Virus record (IMG/VR): IMGVR_UViG_2516143027_000009
Origin: a virus
Taxonomy: Duplodnaviria; Heunggongvirae; Uroviricota; Caudoviricetes
Reading direction: 5' to 3' (one strand)
DNA length: 43,233 bases
Under the pieces are notes generated by a model. The model worked only from the letters and a program-made list of their open reading frames with translations, searched no databases and was not told where the DNA came from. Positions 3,362 through 41,949 of the stretch are shown here, one piece after another. Position numbers and translations under genes: made by a program. The number at the start of each line of letters is the position of its first letter. The stretch's first letter is position 1.

Positions 3362-3388
3362 CCCGCAAAATATTGCGGGCTTTTTTTT
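3362..3388 (+). terminator. Rho-independent terminator, plus-strand orientation, overlapping tailspike stop
   Basis: Hairpin CCCGCAAAATATTGCGGG followed by T8 on the plus strand; the minus-strand reading lacks a U-tract. Confidence 0.5.
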
Positions 3389-6300: not shown

Positions 6301-6506
6301 GGAAGAACCACAGAACCGCCACTATAAGTGCCCGCCCCAGTTACCGTATAACCGGTATCCAGAACCAATTCTGTTACGTTTCCGTTCAGGTCAGACACCT
6401 GAACAACCAGGTCTGATTTTCTGAAAATTCGAAAAGTATACGGAAACGATGTCGTAACGCCGTTACCGGTGTATTCGTTGTGGTCAACTTCGGTTGAGAC
6501 CGTCAT
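3387..6506 (-). CDS. Tailspike or tail fiber protein with C-terminal intramolecular chaperone (peptidase S74-like) domain
   Basis: 1039 aa; N-terminal podovirus tail-fiber anchor-like segment (TGNGVTTSFPYTF); C-terminal ~150 aa resembles the self-cleaving chaperone domain of endosialidases and L-shaped fibers; position after the internal virion protein genes. Confidence 0.75.
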   Translation of the reverse strand: MTVSTEVDHNEYTGNGVTTSFPYTFRIFRKSDLVVQVSDLNGNVTELVLDTGYTVTGAGTYSGGSVVLPSPLATGWRITIDRVLDVVQETDLRNQGKFFPEVHEDAFDYLTMLIQQCFGWFRRALMKPSLLAKYYDAKQNKISNLADPSFEQDAVNNRSMRNYVDAAIAGVVGGFGWFIQYGSGAVYRTFQDKMRDAISPKDFGAVGDGINDDSTAISACLEASSPGYKIDGLGLTFKVSTLPDVSRFKNARFLFERIPGQPLFYASEDFIQGELFKITDTPWYNAWTQDKTFVYDNVIYAPFMAGDRHGVNNLHVAWVRSGDDGKTWTTPEWLTDLHENYPTVNYHCMSMGVVRNRLFAVIETRTVSGNKLQVAELWDRPMSRSLRVYGGITKAANQQVAYIRITDHGLFAGDFVNFSNSGVTGVTGNMTVTTVIDKNTFTVTTQNTQDVDQNNEGRYWSFGTSFHSSPWRKTSLGTIPSFVDGSTPVTEIHSFATISDNSFAVGYHNGDIGPRELGILYFSDAFGSPGSFVRRRIPAEYEANASEPCVKYYDGILYLTTRGTLSTQPGSSLHRSSDLGTSWNSLRFPNNVHHSNLPFAKVGDELIIFGSERAFGEWEGGEPDNRYAGNYPRTFMTRVNVNEWSLDNVEWVNVTDQIYQGGIVNSAVGVGSVCIKDNWLYYIFGGEDFLNPWSIGDNNRKYPYVHDGHPADLYCFRVKIKQEEFVSRDFVYGATPNRTLPTFMSTSGVRTVPVPVDFTDDVAVQSLTVHAGTSGQVRAEVKLEGNYAIIAKKVPSDDVTAQRLIVSGGETTSSADGAMITLHGSGSSTPRRAVYNALEHLFENGDVKPYLDNVNALGGPGNRFSTVYLGSNPVVTSDGTLKTEPVSPDEALLDAWGDVRYIAYKWLNAVAIKGEEGARIHHGVIAQQLRDVLISHGLMEEESTTCRYAFLCYDDYPAVYDDVITGQREMPLTDNEGSIIVDEDDNPVMVMEDIIERVEITPAGSRWGVRPDLLFYIEAAWQRREMDKIKERIQSLEER

Positions 6507-7710: not shown

Positions 7711-7730
7711 TGCTTTTCCTCACAATAACA

Positions 7731-7838: not shown

Positions 7839-7929
7839 ATTTACATCGCACTCCTCTTGTGCCATAGTAATCGGGCACTGGCAAAATCCAGTGCCGGGAT
7901 TGGCGTCCCGGGTTACTAAGTGGCGCATA

Positions 7930-7951
7930 CCACGCCAGACGTGGTTTTTTT
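7930..7951 (+). terminator. Intrinsic terminator inside the 5' leader of the BRO-domain antirepressor gene
   Basis: Hairpin CCACG-CCAGA-CGTGG followed by T7; about 150 nt upstream of the 8108 start codon. Confidence 0.45.
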
Positions 7952-8107
7952 ATGCGTTAAGCACAGCTATATCCGAATTATGGTGGGCTGGGCAGGGGTC
8001 CGAAAGGACGCCGGTACCACTTAGGCCGGTACGCCAACCTTGTCCAGTTCACCACCAGTAATTGGCGTTGCGGTGGTGATTAAAATCACTAAGTGGAGAT
8101 AACCACC

Positions 8108-8963: not shown

Positions 8964-9596
8964 ATGAGAACAAATACAACAAGAAAAGCGATGCCATACA
9001 TTATCCCAGAAGCAGATTTCGATAGAAAACTGAACATGTCTGAGAAGAACACTAGTCACACCGAAAGCTACTTAGCGAAAGGTGTGGTTGATTTCGTTCT
9101 TCCGGGATTCACAACACCTTATGGTTATCGCCTTGTAAAATCTTGTAATGGCGATCATTACAGAATGATTACTACCAGCGATACTCCAGAAACGGTGTAT
9201 GCGGTTAAGTTAATCTTTCGGGAAGATATCGTCGAAGCCAAAAGAACATGTACGCAGATCATGGTATGGCGTACGCCTAATGTTATTCATGACCGTGCTG
9301 TTCATGGTTTGCCTCAGATTTTTTTTCAGTTCTTCCTAGAGCAATATGCGATCGTTGTATCTGATGAGCAACAAACAATCGATGGGAGAAGATTCTGGGA
9401 AAGAATGATTTCTTGGGCTATAAACACCCCGGGATATAATGTATACGTTTCAGATGGCTCTGAAGAAGATAGACCTCTTAGCTTCATGACATCATGGGAT
9501 GATTTCTATAGCCAGTGGGCTGATTTCTGTTGGGGCAGTGATAAAGATGTGCATACCCACAGACTACTGGTTATAAGCAAAGATAAACTGCATTAA
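8964..9596 (+). CDS. Hypothetical protein (accessory gene, no recognisable motif)
   Basis: Strong RBS GGGAGGA before ATG; 210 aa; lower GC than neighbours; own terminator; lies between the inverted repeat copies A and B. Confidence 0.6.
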   Translation: MRTNTTRKAMPYIIPEADFDRKLNMSEKNTSHTESYLAKGVVDFVLPGFTTPYGYRLVKSCNGDHYRMITTSDTPETVYAVKLIFREDIVEAKRTCTQIMVWRTPNVIHDRAVHGLPQIFFQFFLEQYAIVVSDEQQTIDGRRFWERMISWAINTPGYNVYVSDGSEEDRPLSFMTSWDDFYSQWADFCWGSDKDVHTHRLLVISKDKLH

Positions 9597-10868: not shown

Positions 10869-10942
10869 GTCGTTAATTCCTATACGTAGTTTTACGATAC
10901 TGAAGCCCTGACGGTCTGGCCACCGTGGGGCTTCGCTGTTTT
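10869..10942 (+). ncRNA. Candidate sar-like antisense RNA (antisense to the ant RBS and arc 3' end)
   Basis: Plus-strand promoter TTGATA-17 bp-TATACT at 10834..10862 inside the ant 5' end; hairpin 10902..10934 followed by a T-rich tract gives a predicted transcript of about 70 nt. Confidence 0.4.
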
Positions 10943-12325: not shown

Positions 12326-13438
12326 TCACCGCATCACCGGATCCACTTGGTTTATTAGTGGCGCAATCCAGAACAGGTTATTGCCGGGTATCAGGGTTCG
12401 GACATTATGCACAATACGATCACCGGCATCACCATTCAACACTCCTGAGGTCACATCAATGATGCTATCCGCAAGACCAAATGACGGTCCGAATAGAGAT
12501 CCTACGAATCCACGACTGGCATACCTGGACTGTGTGCCAGTGCCAAATAAAGCCCCCAGCCCAACAGCACCACCAGTCGCCTTTTCAGCCATGTTGTTAT
12601 ATTCCATCAATGGCCCAAGAATACCGGATCTATCTATACCCTCAAGCACCAGCTTCTCTGGTGACCAGTCAACATTTTTCCCTTTCGATGCTTCTTTAAG
12701 CGCATAGACCAGTGAGCCAAGAGCAATCTGAAATGCAGTGCCATAATAAAATTGCGCAGTTCCTTCCTGTAACCCACCAAGTAGCGCACGGTTGTATGAA
12801 GCCGTTGTGAATGATTTAAACTGAAATATCGTTCGCCCCATTGGAGTACTCGCCCATAAAGGTGTGTCACCAATACCGGGGGTGATGATAGTGTTATTAA
12901 CGTCTTTCAGAACCGCTGACTGGAATACTCCGGCAACGTACTGATCGTCCCATTTATCAAAGTTACCAATGTGCCATCCATCAATTACCTCACCATGTTT
13001 CTCGAACTCACTGCGAATACGCGCAGCCATATTGTCGTTGATACCGAGTTTTGCCATGCGACGTGCAGAAAACGCACCAGACAAAATACCGTCTGACGTG
13101 AGCATTCCGTTCATGGATTTGTTTATGTCATTAAATCGATCCATGAGTGTCAGCTTGCCGAAGGCATCAGTAATTCGCTCCATTCCTGCTTCGACTGCTG
13201 TTGTCCTGGAAGAACTGTCAACAAGATCACCAATTGCACGAGAACGTGAATGTAGTACAGTTTCCAATCCAATCCCCATCTTCAACATCTCTTCTTTGCT
13301 GGCCTTAAATGCCGGTGATTGGGATATCTGAGAAGCATAGCCTTTCATGGAGTTACGGAAACCATTAACCATAACCCCTCTGGCCAGATCTGGAATAGCT
13401 GATACTGTCATTCCACCGAGTTTGGTCGTGAAGTTCAC
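12326..13438 (-). CDS. Internal virion or ejection protein
   Basis: 370 aa, Gly/Ser-rich, last gene of the internal-protein cluster; position by analogy with T7-like gene order. Confidence 0.55.
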   Translation of the reverse strand: MNFTTKLGGMTVSAIPDLARGVMVNGFRNSMKGYASQISQSPAFKASKEEMLKMGIGLETVLHSRSRAIGDLVDSSSRTTAVEAGMERITDAFGKLTLMDRFNDINKSMNGMLTSDGILSGAFSARRMAKLGINDNMAARIRSEFEKHGEVIDGWHIGNFDKWDDQYVAGVFQSAVLKDVNNTIITPGIGDTPLWASTPMGRTIFQFKSFTTASYNRALLGGLQEGTAQFYYGTAFQIALGSLVYALKEASKGKNVDWSPEKLVLEGIDRSGILGPLMEYNNMAEKATGGAVGLGALFGTGTQSRYASRGFVGSLFGPSFGLADSIIDVTSGVLNGDAGDRIVHNVRTLIPGNNLFWIAPLINQVDPVMR

Positions 13439-15339
13439 ATCCCGCAGAAAAGCGCCAGCACGAACAAAAACGAAGACGGGTCATCAGGCATACCATATGT
13501 ACCAACAAGACGATCGCGTAATGCTGTTATGTCTCTGAGATCATTTGCTCTTGATTTTGAAAGTCTGGACTGTTCTTTCCGTAATTCCTTTTCGTACTTT
13601 CGCATTAATGAATCGAGTTTACCCTGAGGAACAACTTCACCATTGCTCTCATAACGTGCTTTCAGATTTGCCACACTTTCGTCATATTTCGCCTTTATTT
13701 TTTCAGGCACTTCCCGTAACAGACTGTCATATTCGTCCTCAATTAATTGCAGACGCTCTGTCATAGTTCGTTTGCCAAATGTTCTCGTCAACTCAATTTC
13801 TGCTGCCGCTTCACGGATATGACGTTGTAGAACGTAATTCACATCACTTTCGAGATAATCCCTGATAAGACTATCAGGCACATTTAATGTTCTTTCTTTC
13901 GTACTACCTGCGGCTTTTACAGAAAATACGCTGACAAAATCCTGTGGAACCTTAGCACCAGTAATTTTATTAATTACGATATCCGCTGCAATTTCAGCAT
14001 CCTCAGGATCCAGTGTTTTATTGCCTCTCGACCACCAGTCAACCAAAATACGTCGAAATTTATCGCGTTCACTGATTATTTTTCCAACTTTATATATACG
14101 TGGGAAATAGCTTGCCTGGCCTAATGCTTTCAGTTCTTCATCTGGCGGCAATAAACCAAGCTTTTGCATTTCAACCTTCACCCGATTTAATACAGTTCGC
14201 ATCGCCTGCGCCGTTTCCTGAACAACAGGATTAGCATGCACATCACCGCTTCGCATAGCATTCCCAACCTGCTGACGAAATGAATCAAAACTCATGTCAC
14301 CACCATCAGCTTTATACTTTGCGTATGCCTGTTTATTTCCGACAACAACAGCAGCTTCTTCACGCTGCCATCCACGTGTACGGGTTTCTACAGCTACCGG
14401 TGTTTCAATCCCCCTTTCATTTCCTTTAAGGGTGAAATTATTTTCGGCTAACTCCAGCGTTGTTTTTCGCACTGTCTTGGACGGAGACTCCATTAACCTT
14501 GTCAAAGGAGTAAGATAGCTCCCTGCTTTCCATGCAGCCTTTCCAACCACCCCACCGGAAACAGGGGTTAAATCATCCAGAGTCGCTGTATCAATTTTCA
14601 TAGCACCAACACTACCACCATCAGAAAGCGAAGCGGCAGCCCTGTCAGTCGCTGATGTAATGCTCATATTATCAAGAGCATCAGCAACCTCACGCGTGGC
14701 TGCAGCCCGGACGGATGGCGAAAGCGCAACACCAGCACTGGCAAACACGCCGCTCATCATCGCACCCGCTGCAATGTGAGCGGCACTTTCACCCCATGAG
14801 CGTGTTATTTGCTGATTATTCAGCACAACCTCGCTTAATGCTGTACCGGCTGCACCAATCGCAATCTGTGAGCCAATACGCGCCAGTGCCCCTCCTTGAG
14901 CACCGGGGATAAACATTGACGCAACAGTAACCGGATCCATTCCCGCAGCAATACTGGCAAGGGTTCCAACTACGCCAGCATCAGACAATAAACGTCTGTC
15001 TTCATTTTCATCATCTATCTGCTGCTTAATCCACGCCGTTTCCTCTGGCGATCGGGAATCTGCAAATTTCGCCCCCCAGTATTCATAACCGTGCAACTCA
15101 TTTTTATCAGCATATGGGTTATAACCTTCGACCGGTTCAAACTGTCTGGCTGGTCGGAAAAAACCAGCCAGAATATTGTTCTGTCGCATTGCAGCCCCCC
15201 ATACGGAAGGCTCCGGTGGCAATGGCTCAGGATTAGCCCCTTCCGGAAGGGCAACATCAAACCCAGTTTGTTCCGGCAAAACATTACCTGACGGGATCAG
15301 TCCGTTATTAAGATCTTCAGCTTGTGCATAAACTGGCAT
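13435..15339 (-). CDS. Internal virion or ejection protein
   Basis: 634 aa, contiguous with the neighbouring internal virion protein genes on the minus strand. Confidence 0.55.
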   Translation of the reverse strand: MPVYAQAEDLNNGLIPSGNVLPEQTGFDVALPEGANPEPLPPEPSVWGAAMRQNNILAGFFRPARQFEPVEGYNPYADKNELHGYEYWGAKFADSRSPEETAWIKQQIDDENEDRRLLSDAGVVGTLASIAAGMDPVTVASMFIPGAQGGALARIGSQIAIGAAGTALSEVVLNNQQITRSWGESAAHIAAGAMMSGVFASAGVALSPSVRAAATREVADALDNMSITSATDRAAASLSDGGSVGAMKIDTATLDDLTPVSGGVVGKAAWKAGSYLTPLTRLMESPSKTVRKTTLELAENNFTLKGNERGIETPVAVETRTRGWQREEAAVVVGNKQAYAKYKADGGDMSFDSFRQQVGNAMRSGDVHANPVVQETAQAMRTVLNRVKVEMQKLGLLPPDEELKALGQASYFPRIYKVGKIISERDKFRRILVDWWSRGNKTLDPEDAEIAADIVINKITGAKVPQDFVSVFSVKAAGSTKERTLNVPDSLIRDYLESDVNYVLQRHIREAAAEIELTRTFGKRTMTERLQLIEDEYDSLLREVPEKIKAKYDESVANLKARYESNGEVVPQGKLDSLMRKYEKELRKEQSRLSKSRANDLRDITALRDRLVGTYGMPDDPSSFLFVLALFCGM

Positions 15340-18056
15340 TATTTAGATCCCCACGAAAAGTAATCTTTAAATTTGTCCATACGTTCGTTATGCAGGCGCT
15401 GATACTGCTCATCCAGAGCGCGATGCTTGTCTTTGAAGTTTCGTATAGCCTGTCCACGCATAATTTCTTCCTGCTCGTACTGCTCCCGTTCCTGCTGCAT
15501 TTTCTTATAAGGTTCCCAATCTTCTAGTGATGGTTCCCAACGCATAGGACGCCCATGTTTGTTATAAAACGGCTGGACCCGATCGATGCCATTTTCATCC
15601 TTAGTTCTTACCATAATGGCGTAATCACCATTACGAGGTGTTAACACGTCAGGGGTTATGAATAATTCTCCATTAATACGACTCTCAGGGGTTTTTGTCT
15701 CAACTACAGGAGCATTACCTGACGTGATCCCAAGCAACGTCGGACTGGTTGTTATAATCTCTTTGCGCTCACCGTACATCAGCCGTTCTTTTTCAGCTTT
15801 CCACTGCGCCGCCTGCCAGCCTGACGGCCCATATTGATAAAGCGCCTCCGGTGCATATTTCATAAACTGCGCTTCTCCGTTAACCTCGCTGATACTCCAG
15901 GTGCGGGCTATCTGCTGGTTGGTCATTTGCTTCGCTACGTCAGCGTTACCACCAGCAACGCGGTAGTTAATGTCATACAGCGTCTGATAGTCATTACGGA
16001 ATCTAGCTGCTTCCGGCGTCTGGTCATCCGCAGACGGATCCCAACGGAACCACTGCGCCATATTGCTGACAGCAGAATTCATCGCCTTGCTGCGATTATT
16101 TTTGTACTCTTTTGAACTCTGCGTTGATGCCAATTGAGCTTTAAGAGCATCGGTCTGGTTGTACGTCAGGTTCTGCGCCTGCTCGATAGCCGCATCAGCA
16201 GACATGCCAGAATCTGTTAGTTGCTTAACAGTCAGATAAAAACCCTGCATATCCTTCGGCATATTTCCAATAGATGCATTGTCTGTTTCATATAACCGAC
16301 TAAACAAATTCGCTGCATTTTTAACCACTTCCTGATTGCTGGATCTGGATACTGCTGAAAGCTGCGTGATGACCTGCGAAGGCATGATGCCAGTCTGAGC
16401 CACAAGCCGAACAACCCCATCATGAGTGGAGGCATCATTAATACGAAAGTTCTGCGCCATTTCTGTGTAATCAGCAGCTTTCTGCATTGATTTGTTGCTT
16501 GGGTCTAATTTTTCACCTATTGTCAGCGCCTCATTGAATCTGCGTGAATCACGTTGCGCCTGAATTGCTTCATTTGATCGCTGAAGCAATGCAGACAATT
16601 TTCCGTAAGCATCGAGTTTTAACGCATAGTGAGGATCGTTAACCTCAGGCTTCACTTTCTGCATTTCTTCTTGCTGCTGAGAAGGAGGTAAATACTGAAT
16701 TGCCTGGAATATTCTCGCGTTATCAATCGCTATATCCAGTTGATTGATTATTTTATCTGCATTTTTTCCATACCCCCTGATGATAGTCTCCTGAGCCGGT
16801 ATATAATCTGGAACCTCACCGTTATATAGCTGGGCCATGGTGTTATTAATAGCTGGCTCAAGCTGTTCTAATATTAACTTCCTTTGCTTTTCTATCTGAC
16901 TATTAGCAAGGTTATCTATTTGATAAATAGTCAGCGGATCCATTCCAGTTTTATTTTTTCTATATCGGGAAAGCCACCCTTGTGTTTCTGATGGAAGATT
17001 TCGGATAAATTCTTCTTCTGATATTTCACCTTTACGTGGATCACCGACTTTGGCGATCAGTTTATCCACGTTACCCATCCCCCAGTTATATGCTGCTCCG
17101 GTCAATATTTCGGAGCCGTACTTACCATACAGTTGATTTACATAGTCACTGGCGAGCATTTCATGCTGTTGTTCGTCCGTAGGGTTGTATTTAACGCCAC
17201 GCTTGGCCGCCAGTTCTTTCCCTGTGCCCGGCATTAACTGGTATTTCCCCTGGGCTCTCTCTCCAGAAGATGTTATCGGTCCTTCAAGAAGACTACCATC
17301 AGGATTAAAATGTCGATCACCTGATTCAACAAGGCGTATGGCACGCATGTCCATGCCTCCAGAATCATTTTTCTGAAACAGACCATTTAGCCATCCTTCT
17401 GGATTGGCAGCGGCATAATTCTTCGCCCGCATTTCTGTGGCACGGCGATCATCACTTTCTATTTCTTCCAGAATGCGTTCTTGTGACCATCCCCTGGCAG
17501 CTCCATATCTAGCAATGGCTACCATTCTGGAATTTCTGGCTAAAGTGGCAGTTTGCGGGTCATTCCAGGCATCCGCTTCATTTTGTATCCATAATTTTCT
17601 CGTTGCCTGATATTGCTCATCTTCATAGGCATTTGTCTGCCCTATCTCATGTCTGAGAACTCCAGTACTGAACTGAATTTTCTGTGTTCTGGCTTGTTGC
17701 AAAAACATATTTCTTGCTGCTTCATCAGTCAATGAAGCAGCTATTTCTTCCACATCCTGATCAAATCCAGATATGTACTCTTGCCCCTTACCAATCGCAT
17801 TTTTGCCTTGTTGTGCATAAAAACCGGTTTGAGGGTTATAAAGACGTTCATTGCTGCGCTGATTAAGCTGAAGGATGGCATCCTGAGACAATGCAACATT
17901 CGCTTTCTGCCTGGCTTCACCATATGCCACCGCATACTGATCTGCGACATTCGCCAGCACCTGACCTGCTTGAGGAACATCGAAGATCTGAAAACCACCG
18001 GTTTGCACACCACGACTTTGCACCTGGCGTCCGGATGTAGTAGGAACAACAGGCAT
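15339..18056 (-). CDS. Internal virion protein with lytic transglycosylase (SLT-like) domain
   Basis: 905 aa; segment ESGDRHFNPDGS...GERAQGKYQLMPGTGKE resembles the SLT catalytic region; position equivalent to T7 gp15/gp16. Confidence 0.65.
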   Translation of the reverse strand: MPVVPTTSGRQVQSRGVQTGGFQIFDVPQAGQVLANVADQYAVAYGEARQKANVALSQDAILQLNQRSNERLYNPQTGFYAQQGKNAIGKGQEYISGFDQDVEEIAASLTDEAARNMFLQQARTQKIQFSTGVLRHEIGQTNAYEDEQYQATRKLWIQNEADAWNDPQTATLARNSRMVAIARYGAARGWSQERILEEIESDDRRATEMRAKNYAAANPEGWLNGLFQKNDSGGMDMRAIRLVESGDRHFNPDGSLLEGPITSSGERAQGKYQLMPGTGKELAAKRGVKYNPTDEQQHEMLASDYVNQLYGKYGSEILTGAAYNWGMGNVDKLIAKVGDPRKGEISEEEFIRNLPSETQGWLSRYRKNKTGMDPLTIYQIDNLANSQIEKQRKLILEQLEPAINNTMAQLYNGEVPDYIPAQETIIRGYGKNADKIINQLDIAIDNARIFQAIQYLPPSQQQEEMQKVKPEVNDPHYALKLDAYGKLSALLQRSNEAIQAQRDSRRFNEALTIGEKLDPSNKSMQKAADYTEMAQNFRINDASTHDGVVRLVAQTGIMPSQVITQLSAVSRSSNQEVVKNAANLFSRLYETDNASIGNMPKDMQGFYLTVKQLTDSGMSADAAIEQAQNLTYNQTDALKAQLASTQSSKEYKNNRSKAMNSAVSNMAQWFRWDPSADDQTPEAARFRNDYQTLYDINYRVAGGNADVAKQMTNQQIARTWSISEVNGEAQFMKYAPEALYQYGPSGWQAAQWKAEKERLMYGERKEIITTSPTLLGITSGNAPVVETKTPESRINGELFITPDVLTPRNGDYAIMVRTKDENGIDRVQPFYNKHGRPMRWEPSLEDWEPYKKMQQEREQYEQEEIMRGQAIRNFKDKHRALDEQYQRLHNERMDKFKDYFSWGSK

Positions 18057-24765: not shown

Positions 24766-25058
24766 TCCTGTTCACTGGCCTCTTTGGCCATCTTCAAATA
24801 CTGTTCAGGGCAATGCGCCATAACGCGCTGAAACAGTTCCAGCGCCAGATTGCGTTGCCCCTCATTAAATGCCATTGCCATAGCGTCCATCGGTGAGATA
24901 GCGGAAAACACACGGCCTTTCTCCAGCACCGACCAGACAACGCGACGCCCCTGTTCACTGCTCATGACAAAGCGAATGTCATCAATTTCACGCTGCGCCA
25001 TGTCACGTTGCTTACGGGCGTTTTCTTCTTTCAGTTGATCGTCTTCGTAATCTGTCAT
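24762..25058 (-). CDS. Hypothetical protein between portal and scaffold genes
   Basis: 98 aa, start and stop overlap the neighbouring genes. Confidence 0.45.
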   Translation of the reverse strand: MTDYEDDQLKEENARKQRDMAQREIDDIRFVMSSEQGRRVVWSVLEKGRVFSAISPMDAMAMAFNEGQRNLALELFQRVMAHCPEQYLKMAKEASEQE

Positions 25059-26734
25059 TGTGATTGCCCACCCTGACCACTAACTGCATTCGCCATAGCT
25101 GACAACACACTCGGATCCGAAGTTTTAGCTTCGCTTAGCGTCTTGGCCCCCTGTGCCGCCGCCATCCCCATCGCCATCATTTGTTGCTGCTGTTGCTGCT
25201 GTGCCCGTTGCTGGCGAGCCTGCTCAACCTGTTCCTGCGGAACAATGACGGTTGGAGACACTCCGGACATATCAGCGAATGCATCGATCGCCTGATCAAC
25301 GTTGAGTTTGTCGAGAGCTTCTGGTTTCGCTTGCGCAAGTTGACCAATGAAGTTAACCGTGGACGCCAGACTGGACAGGCCGATAGACTTCTGCGCCTGA
25401 GCCATGACGGAAATGTATTCGACCTTCAGGGGCATACCTTCCATCACGTCTGGCGGTGGCGGCAGCATGTTTTTACGCACCATCATCGAGAAAGAGCGGT
25501 CAATGAGAGGATTAAGACATTCGTCGTTCAGACGCTCCAGAACCGGCCCCAACATCAGAAGTTTTTCTTCTTTCATTTCGATCACCGCTTCAACAGGCAT
25601 CGAGCGGGTATTGATGTTCTGCAACATCATGAACAGATCGACAAAGTAGGCGCTGTTAATGATTTGACGAGTGTCCTGAATGTCTGCCACCAAATCTGCT
25701 GTACTGGGGTTAACCAGATAAGCAGGCCTGAAACCATCCTGACCAGTAATCTGATCGATATACGTGATGTCGCCAGGAAGAAGGGAGGCACGCTGATTCT
25801 TGAGGGAAGTCGGAGCAACCATCGGCGGATTGGTGGCTTTATCAATCAACTGCGACTTGCGCTTCTGGAGAAGCTGCAATGCCTTAACAGGTCCAAGCGC
25901 CAGCATACCCGGGCATGATGATCCATAAACATCTTCGCCGTTAACTTCCCAGCGCGGAGCCATAATTGGAAACTCATCGAATCCGGACTCACGCAACAAC
26001 TTGTCGTTATCGCCACAAACCTCGTAATAAACCGATTTGAATGGCTTGTTCTTGCTATCCAGCTTCGATGTATCGCGGTCAATGTTCGGGTAAACCGAAT
26101 GCATCACTTCAATCCACTTCTCGTAGGTTCCGCTTTCCCACATGCTTTTTACGGATTCGCTGACGTTATTTAGCCCGAACTCCTGAACAAGCTGACGAAC
26201 AGTCATAGAGAACTTGCGAAAACAGGTGTCCACACTGCCACGAGGTGAGTTAGCCAGGTAGTAACTGCCTATCGGGAATGGCATTGTGCGAATGATGTCC
26301 TCGTCATCCTCCAGCACCGCCATTGCACCAGTGCTGTATGTGCCGAGGCTTCCGTATAACTGCGGCAGCGACTGATAGAGATTCGACTTATTGAACATAT
26401 CGTTCATGCGGTTCTGCACCGCCTCAAGCCACAACTTAACAGGGCCATAATCCATCATTTCAGGATCTGGCGTAGCCAGGCGAAACCACGGACGCGCGGG
26501 GCTTGTGATGCCTGACATCATGCCGCTGGCGAGAGTGCGCGCCGCCATAGTCCCGGTCGAATCAATAATGCGTGTATTGCGTCGATCGTTACGGTTGACC
26601 TCAGAAGTCAGAAAGCGGGAACCACGCGGGTTGATGTAATCACTCAACTCGCGCCAGTGCGGCTCGAACGACTGACGCTCGCTTTCAAATTGTGCGAACT
26701 GTTTGTTCAATCGCTCTTTAGTTGTTTCCGCCAT
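25055..26734 (-). CDS. Portal protein
   Basis: 559 aa; position after terL; Gln/Ala-rich C-terminal tail. Confidence 0.75.
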   Translation of the reverse strand: MAETTKERLNKQFAQFESERQSFEPHWRELSDYINPRGSRFLTSEVNRNDRRNTRIIDSTGTMAARTLASGMMSGITSPARPWFRLATPDPEMMDYGPVKLWLEAVQNRMNDMFNKSNLYQSLPQLYGSLGTYSTGAMAVLEDDEDIIRTMPFPIGSYYLANSPRGSVDTCFRKFSMTVRQLVQEFGLNNVSESVKSMWESGTYEKWIEVMHSVYPNIDRDTSKLDSKNKPFKSVYYEVCGDNDKLLRESGFDEFPIMAPRWEVNGEDVYGSSCPGMLALGPVKALQLLQKRKSQLIDKATNPPMVAPTSLKNQRASLLPGDITYIDQITGQDGFRPAYLVNPSTADLVADIQDTRQIINSAYFVDLFMMLQNINTRSMPVEAVIEMKEEKLLMLGPVLERLNDECLNPLIDRSFSMMVRKNMLPPPPDVMEGMPLKVEYISVMAQAQKSIGLSSLASTVNFIGQLAQAKPEALDKLNVDQAIDAFADMSGVSPTVIVPQEQVEQARQQRAQQQQQQQMMAMGMAAAQGAKTLSEAKTSDPSVLSAMANAVSGQGGQSQ

Positions 26735-26748
26735 TTCAATGACTCCGG

Positions 26749-26955
26749 TTACTGACCAAGCAGCGTTTTACCGCTGGTATTAGCGGTTGATGTGTCGCCC
26801 TGAGAACCGGTAAGCAGCGTAGAACTACGACCAGCAGCAGCGCGACGGCGACGAGTTTCTTCGTCGCGGGCATCAACAACGGCGGCATCCTGCTCCTGTG
26901 GTGCTGCCTGAACTTCTGGTGTTGCAGGCACTGATGGTGAGCTACCCATGCACAT
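26749..26955 (-). CDS. Small hypothetical protein upstream of portal
   Basis: 68 aa with a plausible GGAG RBS; low-complexity, weak support. Confidence 0.3.
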   Translation of the reverse strand: MCMGSSPSVPATPEVQAAPQEQDAAVVDARDEETRRRRAAAGRSSTLLTGSQGDTSTANTSGKTLLGQ

Positions 26956-27045
26956 ATCAATGACTCCGTACGCAATTAAATCATTACCAATTTAACCACA
27001 TATGATTTATTTATCGTAGATGATTGACATTTAACGCACGAATTA

Positions 27046-27060
27046 TTACCTTTCAGGTAA
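27046..27060. promoter_or_regulatory. Operator-like palindrome TTACC-TTTCA-GGTAA (copy 5), next to a TTGACA hexamer
   Basis: Identical to copy 1; TTGACA at 27023..27028; lies between the portal operon start and the structured region and tRNA. Confidence 0.5.
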
Positions 27061-27382
27061 GTAAAGGATTCATTCCGGTTACTAACCTGACTGGCTTGTC
27101 GTTAAATTGAACAGGTGGAGTGAGCTTTTATTTTGAGCAGTACGGCGTATGGCACATGCGCCGATAGCGGTCTGGATACGTTTAAGGGGCACCCTCCCTT
27201 GCTCGGGCAAACGAACCAGGTAGCCGGAATGTGCAAGTCGAGCGGTTTTATTCCGCGCACGGGGATTCACCATCCCGGCGATTCGGTGTGACGCCTCGGA
27301 AGAGACGAGGGTACAACGATGAGAGCATTTATGGAGCCGCGACAAAGTGTGGCGCCTTAACAGGCTAAGTGCTCTCAGCGTT

Positions 27383-27459
27383 GTGGCATTAGCTCAGTTG
27401 GACAGAGCAACCGCCTTCTAAGCGGTTGGTCGCAGGTTCGAATCCTGCATGCCACGCCA
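27383..27459 (+). tRNA. tRNA-Arg (anticodon UCU), phage-encoded
   Basis: Cloverleaf by eye: acceptor GTGGCAT/ATGCCAC, D-arm GCTC-AGTTGGAC-AGAGC, anticodon stem ACCGC/GCGGT with loop CTTCTAA, T-arm GCAGG-TTCGAAT-CCTGC, discriminator G and encoded CCA. Confidence 0.85.
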
Positions 27460-27503
27460 GAATCACGCCTAAGGACCGTGATGCCAGAAGTTCCAGGTGC
27501 TTG

Positions 27504-27546
27504 GCGGTGATGGTTTCCCTTGAAGGACTATCACCGCCCTTTTTAC
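27504..27546 (+). terminator. Rho-independent terminator downstream of the tRNA
   Basis: Long hairpin GGCGGTGAT...ATCACCGCC followed by CTTTTT. Confidence 0.5.
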
Positions 27547-27619
27547 AGCAGGACGCCATTGCGATGACTTCATGCTGTAAACCAGTACAGCCACGGAAGG
27601 CATAACTCATTGCTTCCAG

Positions 27620-27642
27620 TTCGCCCGGTTCGCCGGGCATTT
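27620..27642 (+). terminator. Hairpin plus T-tract immediately upstream of the 27657 gene RBS
   Basis: GCCCGG-TTCG-CCGGGC followed by T6, then the RBS AAGGTGAG. Confidence 0.45.
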
Positions 27643-27656
27643 TTTAAGGTGAGATC

Positions 27657-28079
27657 ATGAAGACAATTGATATGTTGGCTAAGTATCTAAATGAATGGCC
27701 ATTAAAATATTCTCGTATCGTTCAGGCTGAAGACTGCATTTTTTATGGCGTTTTTGCTGGTAATGAAATGCATTACGAAGTAATTCAGAGTGAGGGACTG
27801 GCCGGGTTAACTCTTAGCGAAGACCATGGTACTAGCGTTACGTACCATGACTGGATTTCAGCGCAGAAAACTGAAATGGAAAAAGGCAATGTGTTTGATA
27901 TTTCTCGCGCTGTATACGCCAAAGAAAAAAGTGATGATGATTACATGCGCGAAAACTTATACAACATGAAGTTACAATGCCTGGCTGAAGTGCTTAGTAA
28001 AAGATCTTTACTTGATGTGGTTGGTGCTGAGCAGGACGCCAAGGCAATCAACGCCGCATTCGATAAAATAACCTTCTAA
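27657..28079 (+). CDS. Hypothetical acidic protein encoded opposite to the late operon (accessory gene)
   Basis: RBS AAGGTGAG; 140 aa; low GC; own terminator; plus strand while the flanking portal and terL are on the minus strand. Confidence 0.6.
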   Translation: MKTIDMLAKYLNEWPLKYSRIVQAEDCIFYGVFAGNEMHYEVIQSEGLAGLTLSEDHGTSVTYHDWISAQKTEMEKGNVFDISRAVYAKEKSDDDYMRENLYNMKLQCLAEVLSKRSLLDVVGAEQDAKAINAAFDKITF

Positions 28080-28100
28080 CGCCGTGACATGTCACAATCA

Positions 28101-28125
28101 GCCCGCCGATTCGCGGGCTTTTTTA
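28101..28125 (+). terminator. Rho-independent terminator of the 27657 gene
   Basis: Hairpin GCCCGC-CGATTC-GCGGGC followed by T7; overlaps the terL stop. Confidence 0.6.
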
Positions 28126-29598
28126 TGCAAAAGGATCATAGTCTGTGATGGCTTTGCCTTGCTGGTTCTGCTGCCCGGGAATTCGCAGACGCTTCGACAC
28201 AGGGAACGCAAACGTCAGCAGTAGCGCATCGCCTTTACCAGGAGAACGCCCAAGTCGCTCTTTGATATCTTCCTTCGGTTCGATAACGATTTTACCGTCC
28301 ACGCGAACTTTGTACTCTGCCGTCGACAGGTCGTCCGCTGTTTCCTGGTCATCCAGCATGCCGCCGAGCCTCAGCCATGTCTTGCATGAGTTGAACATCT
28401 CCCCACGCTTGTTGAGCATCTGCGGGTCAGTAGACGCGCCACCGAACGGAACAAGTTGCCATGTACGACCCCAGCCGTCACCGATTGACTTCAAACCGGT
28501 TCCGTAACCGAAGTCGATGAACACCGCGTCAGCCTGATACTGGTCTTCAAAGTCAGCGATACGCTTCGCCATAATCAGATCGTCGGTAGTCTTGTTGCCA
28601 GTCCACAGCACCTTACTGTGTAGCCCCTGCCGCAGGTATATCACCGCGTCATCAACGCCGGAGTATGCCGGGTCAACGCCGATTATCACCGGAGCATGTG
28701 CCACCTGCGCAGCGGTTACCACCCGTTTCATTGCCTCGTCAGTAAGACCGGTAGGGATAAACTGCAATTCAGATGCATCAGGGAATATGCCGCGCACACG
28801 GATTTTAACGAAGTCGCTGTCTTCCCCGTAGTCATCAACCCATTTCTGCAACTGCTGTTTGTTAGTGCCTTCCACCGTTCGGCTGTCAATCTGCGCAGTT
28901 TTCCAGCGGTGTTTATATTTGCGGAAACATTCGCGGAAACGTCCGGTATTACGCGTCGGGTTTCCGAACGCCACCCAGATAATCTCAGTGTCTTCGTCCG
29001 TTAGTGCACCCTCGGCAACTTCCCACACCAGATCCGCAATGTTCGACGCTTCATCGAATACCACGATGATGCGTTTGCGCTCGTTGTGTAGTCCGGCGAA
29101 TGCCTCAGTGTTGTGCTCAGACCAGGGGATTGCGTCAGCTCGCCACCGCTTGTCGTGTCCAGGATCATTGCTGTACATCGCGGTAGCGGTACAGGTAAAC
29201 CAGTCTTTCGTGATAGCAAGGTTCGACCACTTGATAATTTCCGGCCAGGTCTTCGTTCGTAGCTGGTTGTCGGTGTTGGCGGTCACCACAACCTTACAAT
29301 CCTCGCAAGTGGACATGCCCCAGTTGATCAGCATTGAGATGAATGCGGATTTACCAATACCGTGACCAGAAGCGCGTGCCAGCATAAGCGGCTGATAACG
29401 CGTCTCTGGATTCTGCAGGTGATCACGTATCTCTCGGAACGCATCGGCCTGCCACTGACGTGGACCGGTAGCATGTGCCAGTTCAGTCCCCTCTTCCCCC
29501 CAAGGGAACGCATAGAGGGCATAGCCAAGCGGATCGTGAGTGAACCCTGCAATATCTTCGATTAACTGCTCTTCAGGAGATAACGCTGCATCTGTCAC
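28123..29598 (-). CDS. terL: Terminase large subunit
   Basis: 491 aa; Walker A-like ARASGHGIGKS ATPase motif near the N-terminus; position after terS. Confidence 0.8.
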   Translation of the reverse strand: MTDAALSPEEQLIEDIAGFTHDPLGYALYAFPWGEEGTELAHATGPRQWQADAFREIRDHLQNPETRYQPLMLARASGHGIGKSAFISMLINWGMSTCEDCKVVVTANTDNQLRTKTWPEIIKWSNLAITKDWFTCTATAMYSNDPGHDKRWRADAIPWSEHNTEAFAGLHNERKRIIVVFDEASNIADLVWEVAEGALTDEDTEIIWVAFGNPTRNTGRFRECFRKYKHRWKTAQIDSRTVEGTNKQQLQKWVDDYGEDSDFVKIRVRGIFPDASELQFIPTGLTDEAMKRVVTAAQVAHAPVIIGVDPAYSGVDDAVIYLRQGLHSKVLWTGNKTTDDLIMAKRIADFEDQYQADAVFIDFGYGTGLKSIGDGWGRTWQLVPFGGASTDPQMLNKRGEMFNSCKTWLRLGGMLDDQETADDLSTAEYKVRVDGKIVIEPKEDIKERLGRSPGKGDALLLTFAFPVSKRLRIPGQQNQQGKAITDYDPFA

Positions 29599-30191
29599 TG
29601 ATTGCCATCCTGACGTTCTTTCAGTCTCTTCCTGGCTGCCGCTATGCGATCAGCAATTGTCACATTCACATTAACATCCAGGCGTTCTTTGAATGCATTG
29701 ACATCGACGTGCTTACCAATCAGTTCGAGGTTCTTCACCTTGTCAGGCCATTTAATTTTTTTGAGGATTGTCTCTATCGAATCCTCGTCCATGTTCATGA
29801 TGGTCGATGACAGATCAAAGCCGCTAAGCGTAGTGCGCCAGATTTTCGGCCACTCGCGGATTGGCTTAAGGCTCCCATCGTCGTTGAGGATATCAATCAC
29901 GTCCATCTGGTCGATCTCCACCAGGCGCATGAGAACGTAATCAGCACTGACGCGCATTCGTTTGTTGCGCTCCTCCATCAACTCGGCAATCCGTTTCTGA
30001 ATGCGTTCATCGCGCATCATGACACTGGCTTTAACTGCCGCTGTATTTGGGGAGAATCCTGCATTAATCGCAGCCTGAGTCTGATTTTCAGGCGTTTTGA
30101 TGTATGACTGGCAATAAGCCTCCTGCATTGCTGTTAGTGGCTTAAATTGCGTTGATTTGCGTTTATAGGTTTTAGGTTCAGCAGGCATCAT
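29595..30191 (-). CDS. terS: Terminase small subunit
   Basis: Region AMQEAYCQSYIKTPENQTQAAINAGFSPNTAAVKAS resembles the small terminase DNA-binding domain; start moved to internal Met pair with GGTGG RBS (the ORF extends to 30269). Confidence 0.65.
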   Translation of the reverse strand: MMPAEPKTYKRKSTQFKPLTAMQEAYCQSYIKTPENQTQAAINAGFSPNTAAVKASVMMRDERIQKRIAELMEERNKRMRVSADYVLMRLVEIDQMDVIDILNDDGSLKPIREWPKIWRTTLSGFDLSSTIMNMDEDSIETILKKIKWPDKVKNLELIGKHVDVNAFKERLDVNVNVTIADRIAAARKRLKERQDGNQ

Positions 30192-30196
30192 AACCA

Positions 30197-30230
30197 CCAT
30201 GGTAATAGTTACCGTTGTGGTAATAGTACC
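30197..30230. repeat. Tandem GGTAATAGT(T)ACC repeats directly upstream of terS
   Basis: CCATGGTAATAGTTACC-GTTGT-GGTAATAGTACCATG; half-sites related to the operator but in the opposite arrangement. Confidence 0.5.
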
Positions 30231-30233
30231 ATG

Positions 30234-30260
30234 CAAAATAAAGCCGCCATAGTTGGCGGC
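30234..30260 (-). terminator. Intrinsic terminator between the 30266..30478 gene and terS
   Basis: Minus-strand hairpin GCCGCC-AACTAT-GGCGGC followed by TTTATTTTG. Confidence 0.45.
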
Positions 30261-30265
30261 AGTAT

Positions 30266-30478
30266 TCAAAGTCCATCAAATTCATCGTAAAAACTCTCGT
30301 CAAGATACCCTTCCCATTTACCGCGAATGAAAATTACATCCTCGCCGCAAGGGTGCTGACTGTCGATAACTATATCCCTCCTGGCGCAACCATACTTATG
30401 CATGAGAAATTTAACCTCTTTCGGAAAATTTGCTGAGTTATCTCTCATATCTTCAAGGTCGTAGCGTATTTTTGGCAT
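30266..30478 (-). CDS. Hypothetical small protein
   Basis: 70 aa from Met MPKIRYD with RBS GAAGGTG; the ORF track's upstream extension starts at a GTG inside the palindrome. Confidence 0.5.
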   Translation of the reverse strand: MPKIRYDLEDMRDNSANFPKEVKFLMHKYGCARRDIVIDSQHPCGEDVIFIRGKWEGYLDESFYDEFDGL

Positions 30479-35445: not shown

Positions 35446-36030
35446 ATGAAAAGTATCCAGGACGTCCGCAGGCAAAATCTCAACGACTTGATCGACCGTG
35501 AATTCAATGGTGTTCAGACGCGGATGGCAGAAAAACTTGGAACTCAGGCAAATCTGGTAAACCGCTGGGCTCTTGGCAAGAAGGTTATCGGCGACCAGGT
35601 TGCGCGAAAAATTGAAGCTGCCGCCAATAAACCCCGTAACTGGCTTGATATCGATCGCTCGCTTTCTCAGGAAGGTTTTCAGCCTGTCGGCCCAAGCGAC
35701 ATTGGTCAGCTGGCGGCTCACAACCTGGAACGCTGGATGAGCGAAAGCCGCGACCTTTCAACACAGGGAAAACTTCACCGCGCATCCGGCGTCGCCCAGG
35801 TGACAATCAGCCGCCTGTTAAACAATGAGGTCAGCGTTTCCATTTCCACCCTGGAGAATGTTGCATCCGCATTCGGGCGTCACGGATATGAACTACTGAT
35901 TCACCCGCACGACCCTGCGACTATCAACTATGACCGCTCACGCTACGCATTGTTACCCGAAACCGAGAAAGCAAAGATCGAAAGTTACATTGAATTTGTC
36001 ATCAACCAGAACGAAAAAAGCAAACAATAA
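35446..36030 (+). CDS. Immunity repressor (CI-like), dual HTH, no S24 peptidase domain
   Basis: N-terminal HTH (TQANLVNRWALGKKVIGDQVARKIEAAANKPRNWL) and a second HTH-like segment (ASGVAQVTISRLLNNEVSVSISTLENVASAFG); no Ser/Lys autocleavage motifs; flanked by operator clusters. Confidence 0.65.
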   Translation: MKSIQDVRRQNLNDLIDREFNGVQTRMAEKLGTQANLVNRWALGKKVIGDQVARKIEAAANKPRNWLDIDRSLSQEGFQPVGPSDIGQLAAHNLERWMSESRDLSTQGKLHRASGVAQVTISRLLNNEVSVSISTLENVASAFGRHGYELLIHPHDPATINYDRSRYALLPETEKAKIESYIEFVINQNEKSKQ

Positions 36031-36087: not shown

Positions 36088-36164
36088 TTACCTTATGGGT
36101 AATTTTTTTAACTCATATCTATTGACATCAAACCAAATACGCATAATCATTACCTCAACGGTAA
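36088..36164. promoter_or_regulatory. OL/PL-like region: two operator palindromes flanking a TTGACA promoter
   Basis: TTACC-TTATG-GGTAA (36088..36102); TTGACA at 36122..36127 with CATAAT about 15 bp downstream; TTACC-TCAAC-GGTAA (36150..36164). Confidence 0.6.
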
Positions 36165-36182
36165 CAAGCCGAGGTAACAAGT

Positions 36183-41135: not shown

Positions 41136-41298
41136 GCCTGCAATCTGGCATAGTCACATCCGTACAAAGGTCGGGTGGAGAGGCGTAATACAACACCCGA
41201 AAGGGGAATATGCCCGGAGCTACTGTTTGTGCTCTAGTTGACACCCGATCACCAGCTACTAACTGGTTTTCGTAACTAAAAACAAACAGGAGGTCATC

Positions 41299-41949
41299 AT
41301 GACCAGTCAACTCATCCCCGTATTCAACGGCACTATATCCAACGAAACCGCTCTTCTCGTTAATGCCCGTGATTTACACACTTTCCTCGATGTGGGTAAG
41401 CGATTTGCTTCGTGGATTGTCGAACGAATTGCTGAATATGGTTTCGTTGAAAATCAAGACTTTATGATTATTTCCCAAGTTCGGGAAAAAATAGGCAGAG
41501 GCCGTCCTGCAAAAGACTACCACCTCACCCTCGATACAGCCAAAGAGCTGGCGATGGTCGAGCGTAATGAAAAAGGTCGTCAGGTACGACGCTACTTCAT
41601 TGAATGCGAGAAACGTTTAAGACAACAAGAAACAAAAGTGGAGAAGGTCTTGTCAGGCTTCATGCCCGCCATTATGGAGGCGATCAAGCTGGAAGACAAA
41701 AAAGAATACAGTGCCCCACTGAAGCCCGGCTACCGCAGCCTGATTCACTCGCCGTCTGGTGTTCTCGGCCTGACGGAGCACTCACTGCTGATGAATCTGC
41801 TGAACCAGTTACAGGACGACGGGCACGACGTATCGGGCGCGGCGGCGGAGCTGACCACCATGTTCTGCTACATCGTCGGTGTGAGCAAATGCCTGCGTGA
41901 TATCCAGACTCACGCGGAGTACATCAACGACAAGGCAGGGTTCTTCTGA
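41299..41949 (+). CDS. Antirepressor-like protein, AntA-type N-terminal domain fused to the shared C-terminal module
   Basis: RBS CAGGAGG; N-terminal segment NARDLHTFLDVGKRFASWIVERIAEYGFVENQDF resembles AntA/AntB-type domains (from memory); C-terminal 80 aa near-identical to the 8108 and 9930 products. Confidence 0.65.
   Translation: MTSQLIPVFNGTISNETALLVNARDLHTFLDVGKRFASWIVERIAEYGFVENQDFMIISQVREKIGRGRPAKDYHLTLDTAKELAMVERNEKGRQVRRYFIECEKRLRQQETKVEKVLSGFMPAIMEAIKLEDKKEYSAPLKPGYRSLIHSPSGVLGLTEHSLLMNLLNQLQDDGHDVSGAAAELTTMFCYIVGVSKCLRDIQTHAEYINDKAGFF

Follow-up and report, generated by a model that had tools for sequence, protein, structure and literature searches.

Organization of the unit between the portal and terL genes

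The stretch of DNA analyzed here (the window) is the 43,233-nucleotide (nt) viral record IMGVR_UViG_2516143027_000009 of IMG/VR (Caudoviricetes). Its source is a temperate Escherichia coli phage or prophage of the phiV10/epsilon15-like type (Uetakevirus). A gap of 1.1 kb between terL and the portal side of its minus-strand late genes is filled by a unit on the opposite (plus) strand, which carries a promoter with an operator-like palindrome, a long structured RNA, a tRNA-Arg(UCU), three terminators, and an open reading frame (ORF) of 140 amino acids (aa), here called the cargo ORF (Table 1). The structured RNA appears to represent a new class that recurs in many otherwise unrelated temperate phages. 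In a BLAST comparison, the interval was 93–99% identical to phiV10, the O157 typing phages 9 and 10, TL-2011b, PAS61, and HEMP4.

An initial annotation of the window had listed the promoter hexamer, operator, non-coding stretch, tRNA, terminators, and ORF, and all of these were found at, or within a few bases of, the positions given there; the TTGACA hexamer, for instance, starts one base away. Its description of an accessory unit that is complete in itself and runs on the plus strand, antisense to the late genes, is supported. The unit had also been described as lower in GC than its surroundings. This holds for the promoter region (0.44) and the ORF (0.42) but fails for the RNA part (0.57), as the flanks have values of 0.52–0.56. 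Three features were absent from that annotation: the widespread conserved RNA family, the placement of the tRNA in a structural slot, and the break in homology to phiV10 at the start of the ORF.

The unit is a moron or accessory cassette, with its own promoter and terminators, a deviating composition, and a content that varies among close relatives. As a whole, it is of an ordinary kind, moron-like with a tRNA; the RNA domain is the unusual part.

Table 1. Positions of the elements of the unit and of the flanking genes in the window
Feature	Position	Strand	Remarks
gp3-like ORF and portal gene	25055–26955	−	flank; portal matches Head-tail_con (5e-186)
Sigma-70-type promoter (predicted)	27024–27052	+	−35 TTGACA (27024–27029), 17-nt spacer, weak −10 TACCTT (27047–27052)
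Operator-like palindrome	27045–27061		17 bp, ATTACCTTTCAGGTAAG; covers −10 and +1
Structured RNA domain (putative new family)	27141–27316	+	covariation; covariance model, 142 bits
Helix H1	27143–27148/27158–27163	+	
Helix H2	27171–27174/27217–27220	+	variable tip
Helix H3	about 27241–27257	+	
Helix H4	27262–27265/27273–27276	+	
Helix H5	27294–27298/27306–27310	+	
Pseudoknot PK2	27268–27271/27285–27288	+	H4 loop UCACC with downstream GGUG
Possible pseudoknot PK1	27152–27157/27229–27234	+	RNAalifold long-range pairing
Invariant 19-mer	27219–27237	+	GGTAGCCGGAATGTGCAAG; within the RNA domain
M-helix	27314–27383	+	16 bp; arms CAACGATGAGAGCATT and AGTGCTCTCAGCGTTG close a variable insert of 38 nt
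tRNA-Arg(UCU)	27383–27459	+	encoded CCA; ARAGORN anticodon tct; Rfam RF00005, 73.3 bits (cut-off 29)
Trailer hairpin	27462–27482	+	ATCACG-CCTAAGGAC-CGTGAT; kept after the tRNA or tRNA-like domain in relatives
Terminator T1	27503–27545	+	14-bp stem (27503–27538), then CTTTTT
Segment ending in terminator T2	27592–27646	+	hairpin (27623–27638), then ATTTTTT
Ribosome-binding site	27647–27654	+	AAGGTGAG; ahead of the cargo ORF
Cargo ORF	27657–28079	+	140 aa; phrog_4846; isoelectric point 4.8; 23 D+E against 15 K+R
Terminator T3	28100–28125	+	hairpin (28100–28119), then TTTTTT; ends 2 bp before the stop codon of convergent terL
terS and terL	28123–30269	−	flank; terL at 28123–29598

Fold and covariation of the RNA domain

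The MAFFT alignment of 46 non-redundant members consists of invariant blocks that alternate with variable hairpins. The structure was drawn by eye, partly from RNAalifold, and contains H1, H2, H4, H5, PK2, and possibly PK1. Pairing is kept in 98.6% of the cells of this alignment, and 11 of the 31 pairs change on both sides (93 cells). This level was reached in none of 500 shuffles, and slid controls gave no more than 6 pairs and 18 cells. When 70 distinct members were aligned to the covariance model described below, 98.9% of the cells were paired and 12 pairs had changed on both sides (167 cells). PK2 shows a clean exchange from C-G to A-U in five sequences of the first alignment and in seven of the second. 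The covariation thus bears out the earlier suggestion that the non-coding stretch is a structured RNA region.

Several pairs are almost universally G-U; at two positions, U-G was found in 44 and 46 of the 46 sequences. If the minus strand were transcribed, these positions would give A-C mismatches, and therefore the RNA is read from the plus strand. The z-scores of the minimum free energy did not help with this assignment (−3.5 for plus versus −3.3 for minus). The possible PK1 originates from an RNAalifold pairing of GGCACAU with AUGUGC. Outer pairs of H2 (27167–27168/27223–27224) were considered and dropped because a G-to-A variant in two members (L157 and L162) contradicts them.

About 55 positions are invariant, and they are concentrated in the junctions and pseudoknots. 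The tip of H2 is variable except for a YCCUUG motif, which is kept family-wide and is found again in the loop of T1 (27518–27526). In a subgroup that includes the window, P1, and cdtI, an extra AAGGGG strand pairs with this motif.

A covariance model, R1, represents the family, which is defined by H1–H5, PK2, and the invariant GGUAGCCGGAAUGUGCAAG. The model scores the window at 142 bits (E = 5e-44). Full members score 113–168 bits (75 matches); 73 further loci have a single full copy each, and locus L050 has two. No family of Rfam 15 reached its gathering score in 27040–27382, and none appeared at E ≤ 10 over 26950–27700. The RNA domain of eight related loci likewise gave no Rfam match at E ≤ 1. 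Literature searches with sequence strings and on the P1 ban operon, on phiV10/epsilon15, and on structured RNAs of lambdoid phages found no description of it; the Pas small RNAs (sRNAs), which lie in another context near Q and the lysis genes, are not the same element. As neither a curated family nor a published description matches it, we rate the domain as a probable new class of RNA.

The domain does not appear to be a protein gene, since its variable regions shift in length in all modulo-3 classes and no frame stays open throughout the family.

Distribution and genomic contexts

BLAST matched positions 27142–27386 of the window at 80–84% identity to lambdoid phages (cdtI, mEp460, Ayreon, 2H10, and Stx2c and Stx2a phages). 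The core (27142–27305) was also found in P1, P7, D6, SJ46, and RCS47, in phages of Klebsiella, Salmonella, and Enterobacter, and in one phage recorded on Stenotrophomonas. The family is present in 86 phage records, which include P1, P7, cdtI, mEp460, and the Stx2a and Stx2c phages. Among 5426 complete E. coli genomes, 1064 carry it, at 965 places on chromosomes and 276 on plasmids. The sole annotation beneath the matches in the E. coli genomes is the tRNA that the query overlaps. An exact copy of the 19-mer GGTAGCCGGAATGTGCAAG occurs in more than 120 viral contigs and at 24 places in species-representative genomes, 22 of them in Enterobacterales. One of the other two, in an Oscillospiraceae genome (L018), was discarded as chance because it has no R1 match.

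Three contexts recur: the gap between portal and terL in Uetakevirus, the position just after a PL-type promoter in lambdoid phages without N, and the C1-controlled ban operon of P1. A cI-type repressor gene on the same strand stands immediately upstream of the RNA in about 63 of the 135 non-redundant contexts. The lambdoid carriers have it at the PL position, and the genes downstream are all co-oriented. A Pfam search of these early-left genes and a scan of the cdtI genome for Arg-rich motifs, which hit spurious frames only, revealed no N-like protein.

In the ban operon of P1, the order is an annotated dicF-like region, the M-helix, trnA and trnT, tciABC, trnI, the RNA domain, and ban. The domain (NC_005856, 71023–71191) starts 14 nt after trnI, at a distance of 2.3 kb from the promoter, and ban follows it directly with no terminator in between; the P1 record has no annotation for it. 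Elsewhere, some members consist of the domain and a bidirectional terminator only, facing a convergent gene, and a few have a terminator-like hairpin directly after H5. An in-house count of terminators across 130 loci was equal on both strands and therefore uninformative.

Two loci show how the domain is lost or duplicated. In epsilon15 (NC_004775), a deletion at positions 2544–2647 of its locus (L005) has fused the tip of H2 to the loop of T1, both of which carry UUCCCUUGAUGCU. The remnant, H1 and half of H2, scores 39 bits with R1, and T2 and the ORF are kept; in the epsilon15 record, the annotation here is an RNase III site, placed on the opposite strand. On the minus strand of L050, two copies (3994–4154 and 4801–4959), one of them decaying, flank an AT-rich moron on the opposite strand, probably a membrane-protein gene, downstream of a cI-like gene. 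A direct repeat of 30 nt precedes the second copy, as in locus L112.

Promoter, operator, and timing of expression

The transcription start of the unit is predicted near 27058. The layout of the −35 element and the operator is kept in related Uetakevirus loci. The window has 14 ATTACCnnnnnGGTAAT-like sites, the palindrome ATTACCTTTCAGGTAAG among them, where 1.5 are expected by chance. The composite TTGACA-N17-TACC-N5-GGTA occurs twice (0.18 expected), and an identical promoter-operator layout lies at 36123–36165, beside a helix-turn-helix repressor ORF (35446–36030) and its divergent cro-like partner. A repressor site is annotated at the homologous place in the epsilon15 record.

A similar association was seen in the other contexts inspected. 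In cdtI, a terminator ends cI and is followed by a promoter (TTGACA-16-CATAAT, 11 of 12 positions) ahead of the RNA. Its spacer holds a TGTACC-N5-GGTACA palindrome, which also occurs twice in the cI–cro interval (three sites in all, 0.16 expected). The repressor and operators of mEp460 differ from those of cdtI, and its operators again lie at the promoter of the RNA. The RNA-bearing ban operon of P1 is annotated as being under the C1 operator Op72. Thus, the RNA stands behind the phage's own operator in every context inspected, as judged with a tool for the window and cdtI, by eye for mEp460 and L069, and from the annotation for P1.

The initial annotation had proposed expression in the lysogen or early. 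Because operators of the phage's own repressor recur at the promoter of the RNA, the better reading of these sequences is that the unit would be early, repressor-controlled, and dependent on derepression. Expression in the lysogen is disfavored, since the palindrome covers the −10 element and the start site and the homologues are likewise linked to operators.

The M-helix, the tRNA slot, and the terminators

The M-helix begins three nt past H5, and its final base is G1 of the tRNA. Its arms covary: cognate arms gave −18.4 kcal/mol, compared with −12.6 kcal/mol for non-cognate ones, and the cognate arm usually ranked first to third of 23. An unannotated M-helix was also noticed in P1, at 1044–1120 of locus L004 (NC_005856, 69066–69142), with the arms CAACAGGTAAGGGCGC and GCGTCCTTTCCTGTTG; it lies between the dicF-like region and trnA.

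ARAGORN and the Rfam model confirmed the tRNA-Arg(UCU) of the initial annotation, which had also suggested a check of AGA and AGG usage. For AGA, the codon makes up 13% of the Arg codons in the ORFs of the window (8.1 per 1000 codons) and is concentrated in the tail and tailspike genes. The ORF at 8964–9596 uses it for 10 of its 14 Arg codons, and the tail genes at 3387–6506 and 13435–18056 hold 38 more. As E. coli averages about 2 AGA codons per 1000, codon supplementation by this tRNA is plausible.

In relatives, the same slot (GTTGTGG...) holds this tRNA-Arg, an Ile(aat) tRNA according to ARAGORN, or tRNA-like sequences with intact D- and T-arms. Its commonest content is a degenerate tRNA-like domain with D-arm-like and T-arm-like hairpins. 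This domain starts with GTGGTGAAT, followed by a 4-bp stem with an 8-nt loop, continues with a hypervariable middle of 40–140 nt, and ends with GCCGG-AGATCAGCA-CCGGC and CACCAC, or with ACCA in some copies. In three members (L127, L096, and L123), the variable middle contains a piece resembling 16S rRNA; that of L127 (3971–4017) is about 47 nt long and scores 38 bits (E = 4e-7) with the small-subunit rRNA model. As relatives fill this position with other tRNAs or tRNA-like domains, the tRNA of the window most probably occupies a structural slot of a composite RNA.

The trailer hairpin and T1 follow in most contexts, and the RNA of lambdoid relatives ends in a terminator homologous to T1. Both hairpin terminators placed before the ORF by the initial annotation, and the ORF's own terminator, were recovered on the plus strand. 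None of the three has a T-run on the minus strand; therefore, late transcription could still cross the gap.

Two known sRNAs were considered for the terminator segments and rejected. The DicF model (RF00039) gave 13 bits (E = 2, cut-off 48) for the T1 segment and 24–28 bits in two relatives. Within the T2 segment, CAUUGCUUCCAGU matches the consensus core of the Rfam RyhB model exactly, and this motif is kept in related Uetakevirus loci. The RyhB model (RF00057) gave it 16.5 bits (E about 1, cut-off 55), a match to the 13-nt core and the terminator only; in L108, the model reached 27.4 bits.

The cargo ORF

The prediction of an acidic 140-aa protein was confirmed, and no virion protein matches it. 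Searches of Pfam and PADLOC gave no match, and the only assignment is phrog_4846, of unknown function. Among its 107 homologues, every named one is from a genus of Enterobacterales. The AlphaFold model has a mean predicted local distance difference test score of 59.5 and is confident only for a C-terminal helical hairpin, which is formed by the last 45 residues (NLYxxKLQCL...AINAAFDKI). This hairpin is common to the cargo ORFs of the window, L007, and L014, whose N-terminal parts are unrelated or missing.

The homology to phiV10 ends exactly at the ATG of the cargo ORF. At the same ATG, relatives have a Gp49/Gp66-family gene (phiV10 and epsilon15), a Tad2-like gene, a gene for a protein of 86–88 aa, or a member of the phrog_4846 family. 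The Tad2-like genes were found in the slot after T2 of two IMG/VR contigs (L117 and L128) and encode a Thoeris anti-defense domain protein (PF11195, 3e-24). Because different genes begin at the same ATG, the slot appears to be an exchange point for accessory genes, and these are possibly anti-defense genes.

Other RNA matches in the window

Outside the unit, Rfam matches at the gathering score were obtained for isrK, C4 antisense RNA, and sar RNA (7875–7951, 7976–8059, and 10870–10937). This stretch is an antisense immunity module of the P1/P22 type, and operator palindromes adjoin it at 7730 and 7823. A further match, to sRNA-Xcc1 (64.8 bits), lies at 41169–41258 and is followed by a palindrome-rich stretch (41325–41449, helix scan); this family is presumably integron-associated.

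Possible function of the unit

We tentatively favor the reading that the unit is an early, repressor-controlled, and mostly RNA-coding operon of a phiV10-like temperate phage, an accessory module whose transcript is processed and supplies an RNA that acts in trans. We give this reading slightly less than an even chance. When the repressor leaves its operator, host RNA polymerase would start near 27058 and produce a single precursor, which comprises the pseudoknotted domain of 175 nt, the 16-bp helix, tRNA-Arg(UCU), the trailer hairpin, and T1. Read-through of T1 and T2 would yield transcripts that also bear the cargo ORF. Host tRNA-processing enzymes would cut the precursor, with RNase P acting at 27382/27383 and 3′ trimming after 27459, and RNase III may cut its long helix. 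Processing is predicted to yield a stable structured RNA, about 240 nt long or, with the 5′ leader retained, about 325 nt, together with a tRNA that decodes the over-used AGA codon of the phage and short terminator-ended RNAs. The structured RNA could then bind a protein or another RNA and act as a regulator when lytic growth is just beginning.

Within the unit, selection is strongest on the structured RNA, which also travels as a module among unrelated temperate phages. This mobility is one reason for preferring a processed early RNA. The other reasons are that the domain is fused directly to tRNA-type modules, with the M-helix abutting G1, that the same modules recur in a different order in P1, and that some members have nothing besides the domain and a terminator, with a convergent gene opposite.

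Known systems resemble this arrangement in part. The species 1 and 2 RNAs of T4, a virulent phage, are stable structured RNAs co-transcribed with the phage tRNA cluster. They are presumably freed by tRNA-processing enzymes, as proposed for the RNA described here; however, they show no relation to it in sequence or structure, and its expression is tied to the operators of temperate-phage repressors. A structured RNA followed by a tRNA-like module is also found in MALAT1-mascRNA and in plant viruses, where a pseudoknot domain precedes a tRNA-like structure. The architecture is similar in that the module can be recognized by RNase P or the CCA-adding enzyme. Those examples are eukaryotic or plant-viral, whereas in the phage family the module is a true tRNA or, in other members, a degenerate domain with a hypervariable middle, and its processing is a prediction. 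Further parallels are the P1 ban operon and the dicF operon of Qin, which give polycistronic, processed early RNAs. P1 itself has a member of the family, three tRNAs, an M-helix, a dicF-like region, and a C1 operator. The order of its modules differs from that of the window, and the T1 segment of the window stays far below the DicF cut-off.

Several observations speak against a processed, trans-acting RNA. The −10 element is weak, so that a generic promoter scan of the window missed the promoter. The outermost pair of the M-helix takes G1 of the tRNA, which would leave RNase P no single-stranded leader, and the RNA might stay in one piece. PK1 is invariant and thus shows no covariation, and in the variant L163 one of its pairs is lost. 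Epsilon15 is viable with most of the domain lost; therefore, the RNA is dispensable in the laboratory. Finally, the lambdoid RNA sits exactly at the place of nutL/N or putL and is followed by a terminator and the early-left genes, a position that a role in cis fits at least as well.

Alternative explanations

The main alternative is a processive antiterminator acting in cis, which we regard as possible but less probable than the processed early RNA. The nascent domain, alone or with host Nus factors, would make RNA polymerase resistant to terminators. Polymerase would thereby pass T1 and T2 to reach the cargo ORF in the window, and transcripts from PL would reach the early-left genes of lambdoid relatives, the RNA replacing N and nutL. 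The frequent position directly downstream of a cI-type gene, behind an operator-bearing PL-type promoter, agrees with this explanation, as do the co-oriented genes downstream, the T1-type terminator in front of them, and the negative searches for an N-like protein. The cargo ORF of the window lies behind two strong terminators, with no promoter-like site between them. Moreover, the mEp collection, which includes mEp460 and mEp390, has been described as Nus-dependent (PMC11893012).

A precedent exists in HK022, where putL, just after PL, is an RNA-only antiterminator (PMC9378689). The put RNA is about 70 nt long and has two stem-loops, with copies at both PL and PR (PMC9378689). Like putL and putR, the domain in lambdoid carriers without N is a phage RNA element just past a repressor-controlled PL, followed by terminators and early genes. 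However, at 150–180 nt it exceeds put two- to threefold in size and is structurally unrelated, with five helices and at least one pseudoknot instead of two stem-loops. It also occurs once per genome, as in cdtI and the window, with no copy behind PR. In addition, it is found in the middle of an operon in P1 and in the late-region gap of Uetakevirus, fused to a tRNA or tRNA-like domain. The evidence that it may act in cis on the polymerase is positional (PL-proximal, with terminators downstream).

Other features are also difficult to reconcile with antitermination. In P1, the domain is 2.3 kb from the promoter and stands directly before ban with no terminator between, and in some members it is followed just by a bidirectional terminator and a convergent gene. 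Epsilon15 lost the domain by recombination between two similar loop sequences and still kept T2 and the ORF. The fusion to a tRNA or tRNA-like domain would have no role. A nut site of the lambda type with N was rejected as a specific form of this explanation. The boxA-like UGCUCUUU is one strand of a base-paired, covarying helix rather than a conserved single-stranded site, and no N-like protein is encoded by the downstream genes or the cdtI genome within the scope of the searches described above. Sequence alone cannot decide between a processed RNA acting in trans and an antiterminator acting in cis.

A broader proposal takes the domain as the first representative of a new functional class of phage RNA, either an antiterminator that replaces N or an early effector on a tRNA scaffold. 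Taking both forms together, we consider it doubtful, on a par with the cis antiterminator. In the first form, the RNA, by itself or with Nus factors, would drive early transcription in many lambdoid, P1-like, and epsilon15-like temperate phages, including Stx-converting ones. In the second form, a conserved pseudoknotted head with a hypervariable tRNA-like arm, sometimes bearing rRNA-like pieces, would bind and neutralize host factors or defenses.

The lysogen-expressed moron, an option of the initial annotation, is improbable. According to this option, transcription in the prophage would supply the host with the tRNA and with a fitness or exclusion protein. The unit resembles phage morons and tRNA supplements in several respects: it has a promoter and terminators of its own, its ORF is low in GC and exchangeable, and its tRNA reads a codon that the host uses rarely and the phage over-uses. 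It is antisense to the late genes, its cargo slot is variable, with a Tad2-like gene in one relative, and the lambdoid RNA adjoins cI, a frequent site of lysogeny-expressed morons. However, the cassette is mostly conserved RNA and not a protein gene, and its operator implies early rather than prophage expression. The palindrome over −10 and +1, the cI operators at the homologous promoters of cdtI and mEp460, and the C1 operator of P1 all argue against expression in the lysogen. In cdtI, a terminator separates cI from the promoter of the RNA. An anti-defense cargo such as Tad2 would be needed during infection and not in the lysogen.

A riboswitch or attenuator is slightly less probable still. 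An aptamer that senses a ligand or factor would set termination at T1 and T2, or translation of ban in P1. The length of about 160 nt, the 5′-leader position, and the invariant positions in junctions and pseudoknots are typical of what this explanation expects, and the few members with a terminator-like hairpin directly after H5 agree with it. In most members, however, 150–350 nt (the helix and the tRNA or tRNA-like domain) lie between the domain and the first terminator. No mutually exclusive pairing was seen by eye, and the downstream genes are unrelated to one another.

Conservation at a level other than RNA, as a small protein gene or a DNA site (a recombination linker or a packaging or binding site), is largely refuted by the compensatory changes in five helices, the strand-specific G-U pairs, the indels in every length class, and the lack of an open frame, even though hypothetical coding sequences are annotated across the domain in GenBank (mEp460_037 and one of TL-2011b) and the duplicates flanking the inserted moron in L050 and the deletion between similar loops in epsilon15 indicate that the domain does serve as a recombination substrate.

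Biological implications

About 20% of complete E. coli genomes, the model phages P1 and P7, and phages converting for the Stx2a, Stx2c, and cdt toxins carry an unannotated RNA of 160–250 nt with five covarying helices and a pseudoknot. This RNA belongs in annotation pipelines, and the spurious coding sequences called across it should be removed. Because the RNA is tied to the master repressor of the phage in the contexts inspected, it would belong to the first seconds of the lysis program. Cis action as an antiterminator would explain how the early-left operon is expressed in lambdoid phages that lack N, among them toxin phages of clinical relevance. Action in trans would make the RNA a new effector RNA of phages, and its fusion to a tRNA-like domain would be a natural counterpart of engineered tRNA scaffolds.

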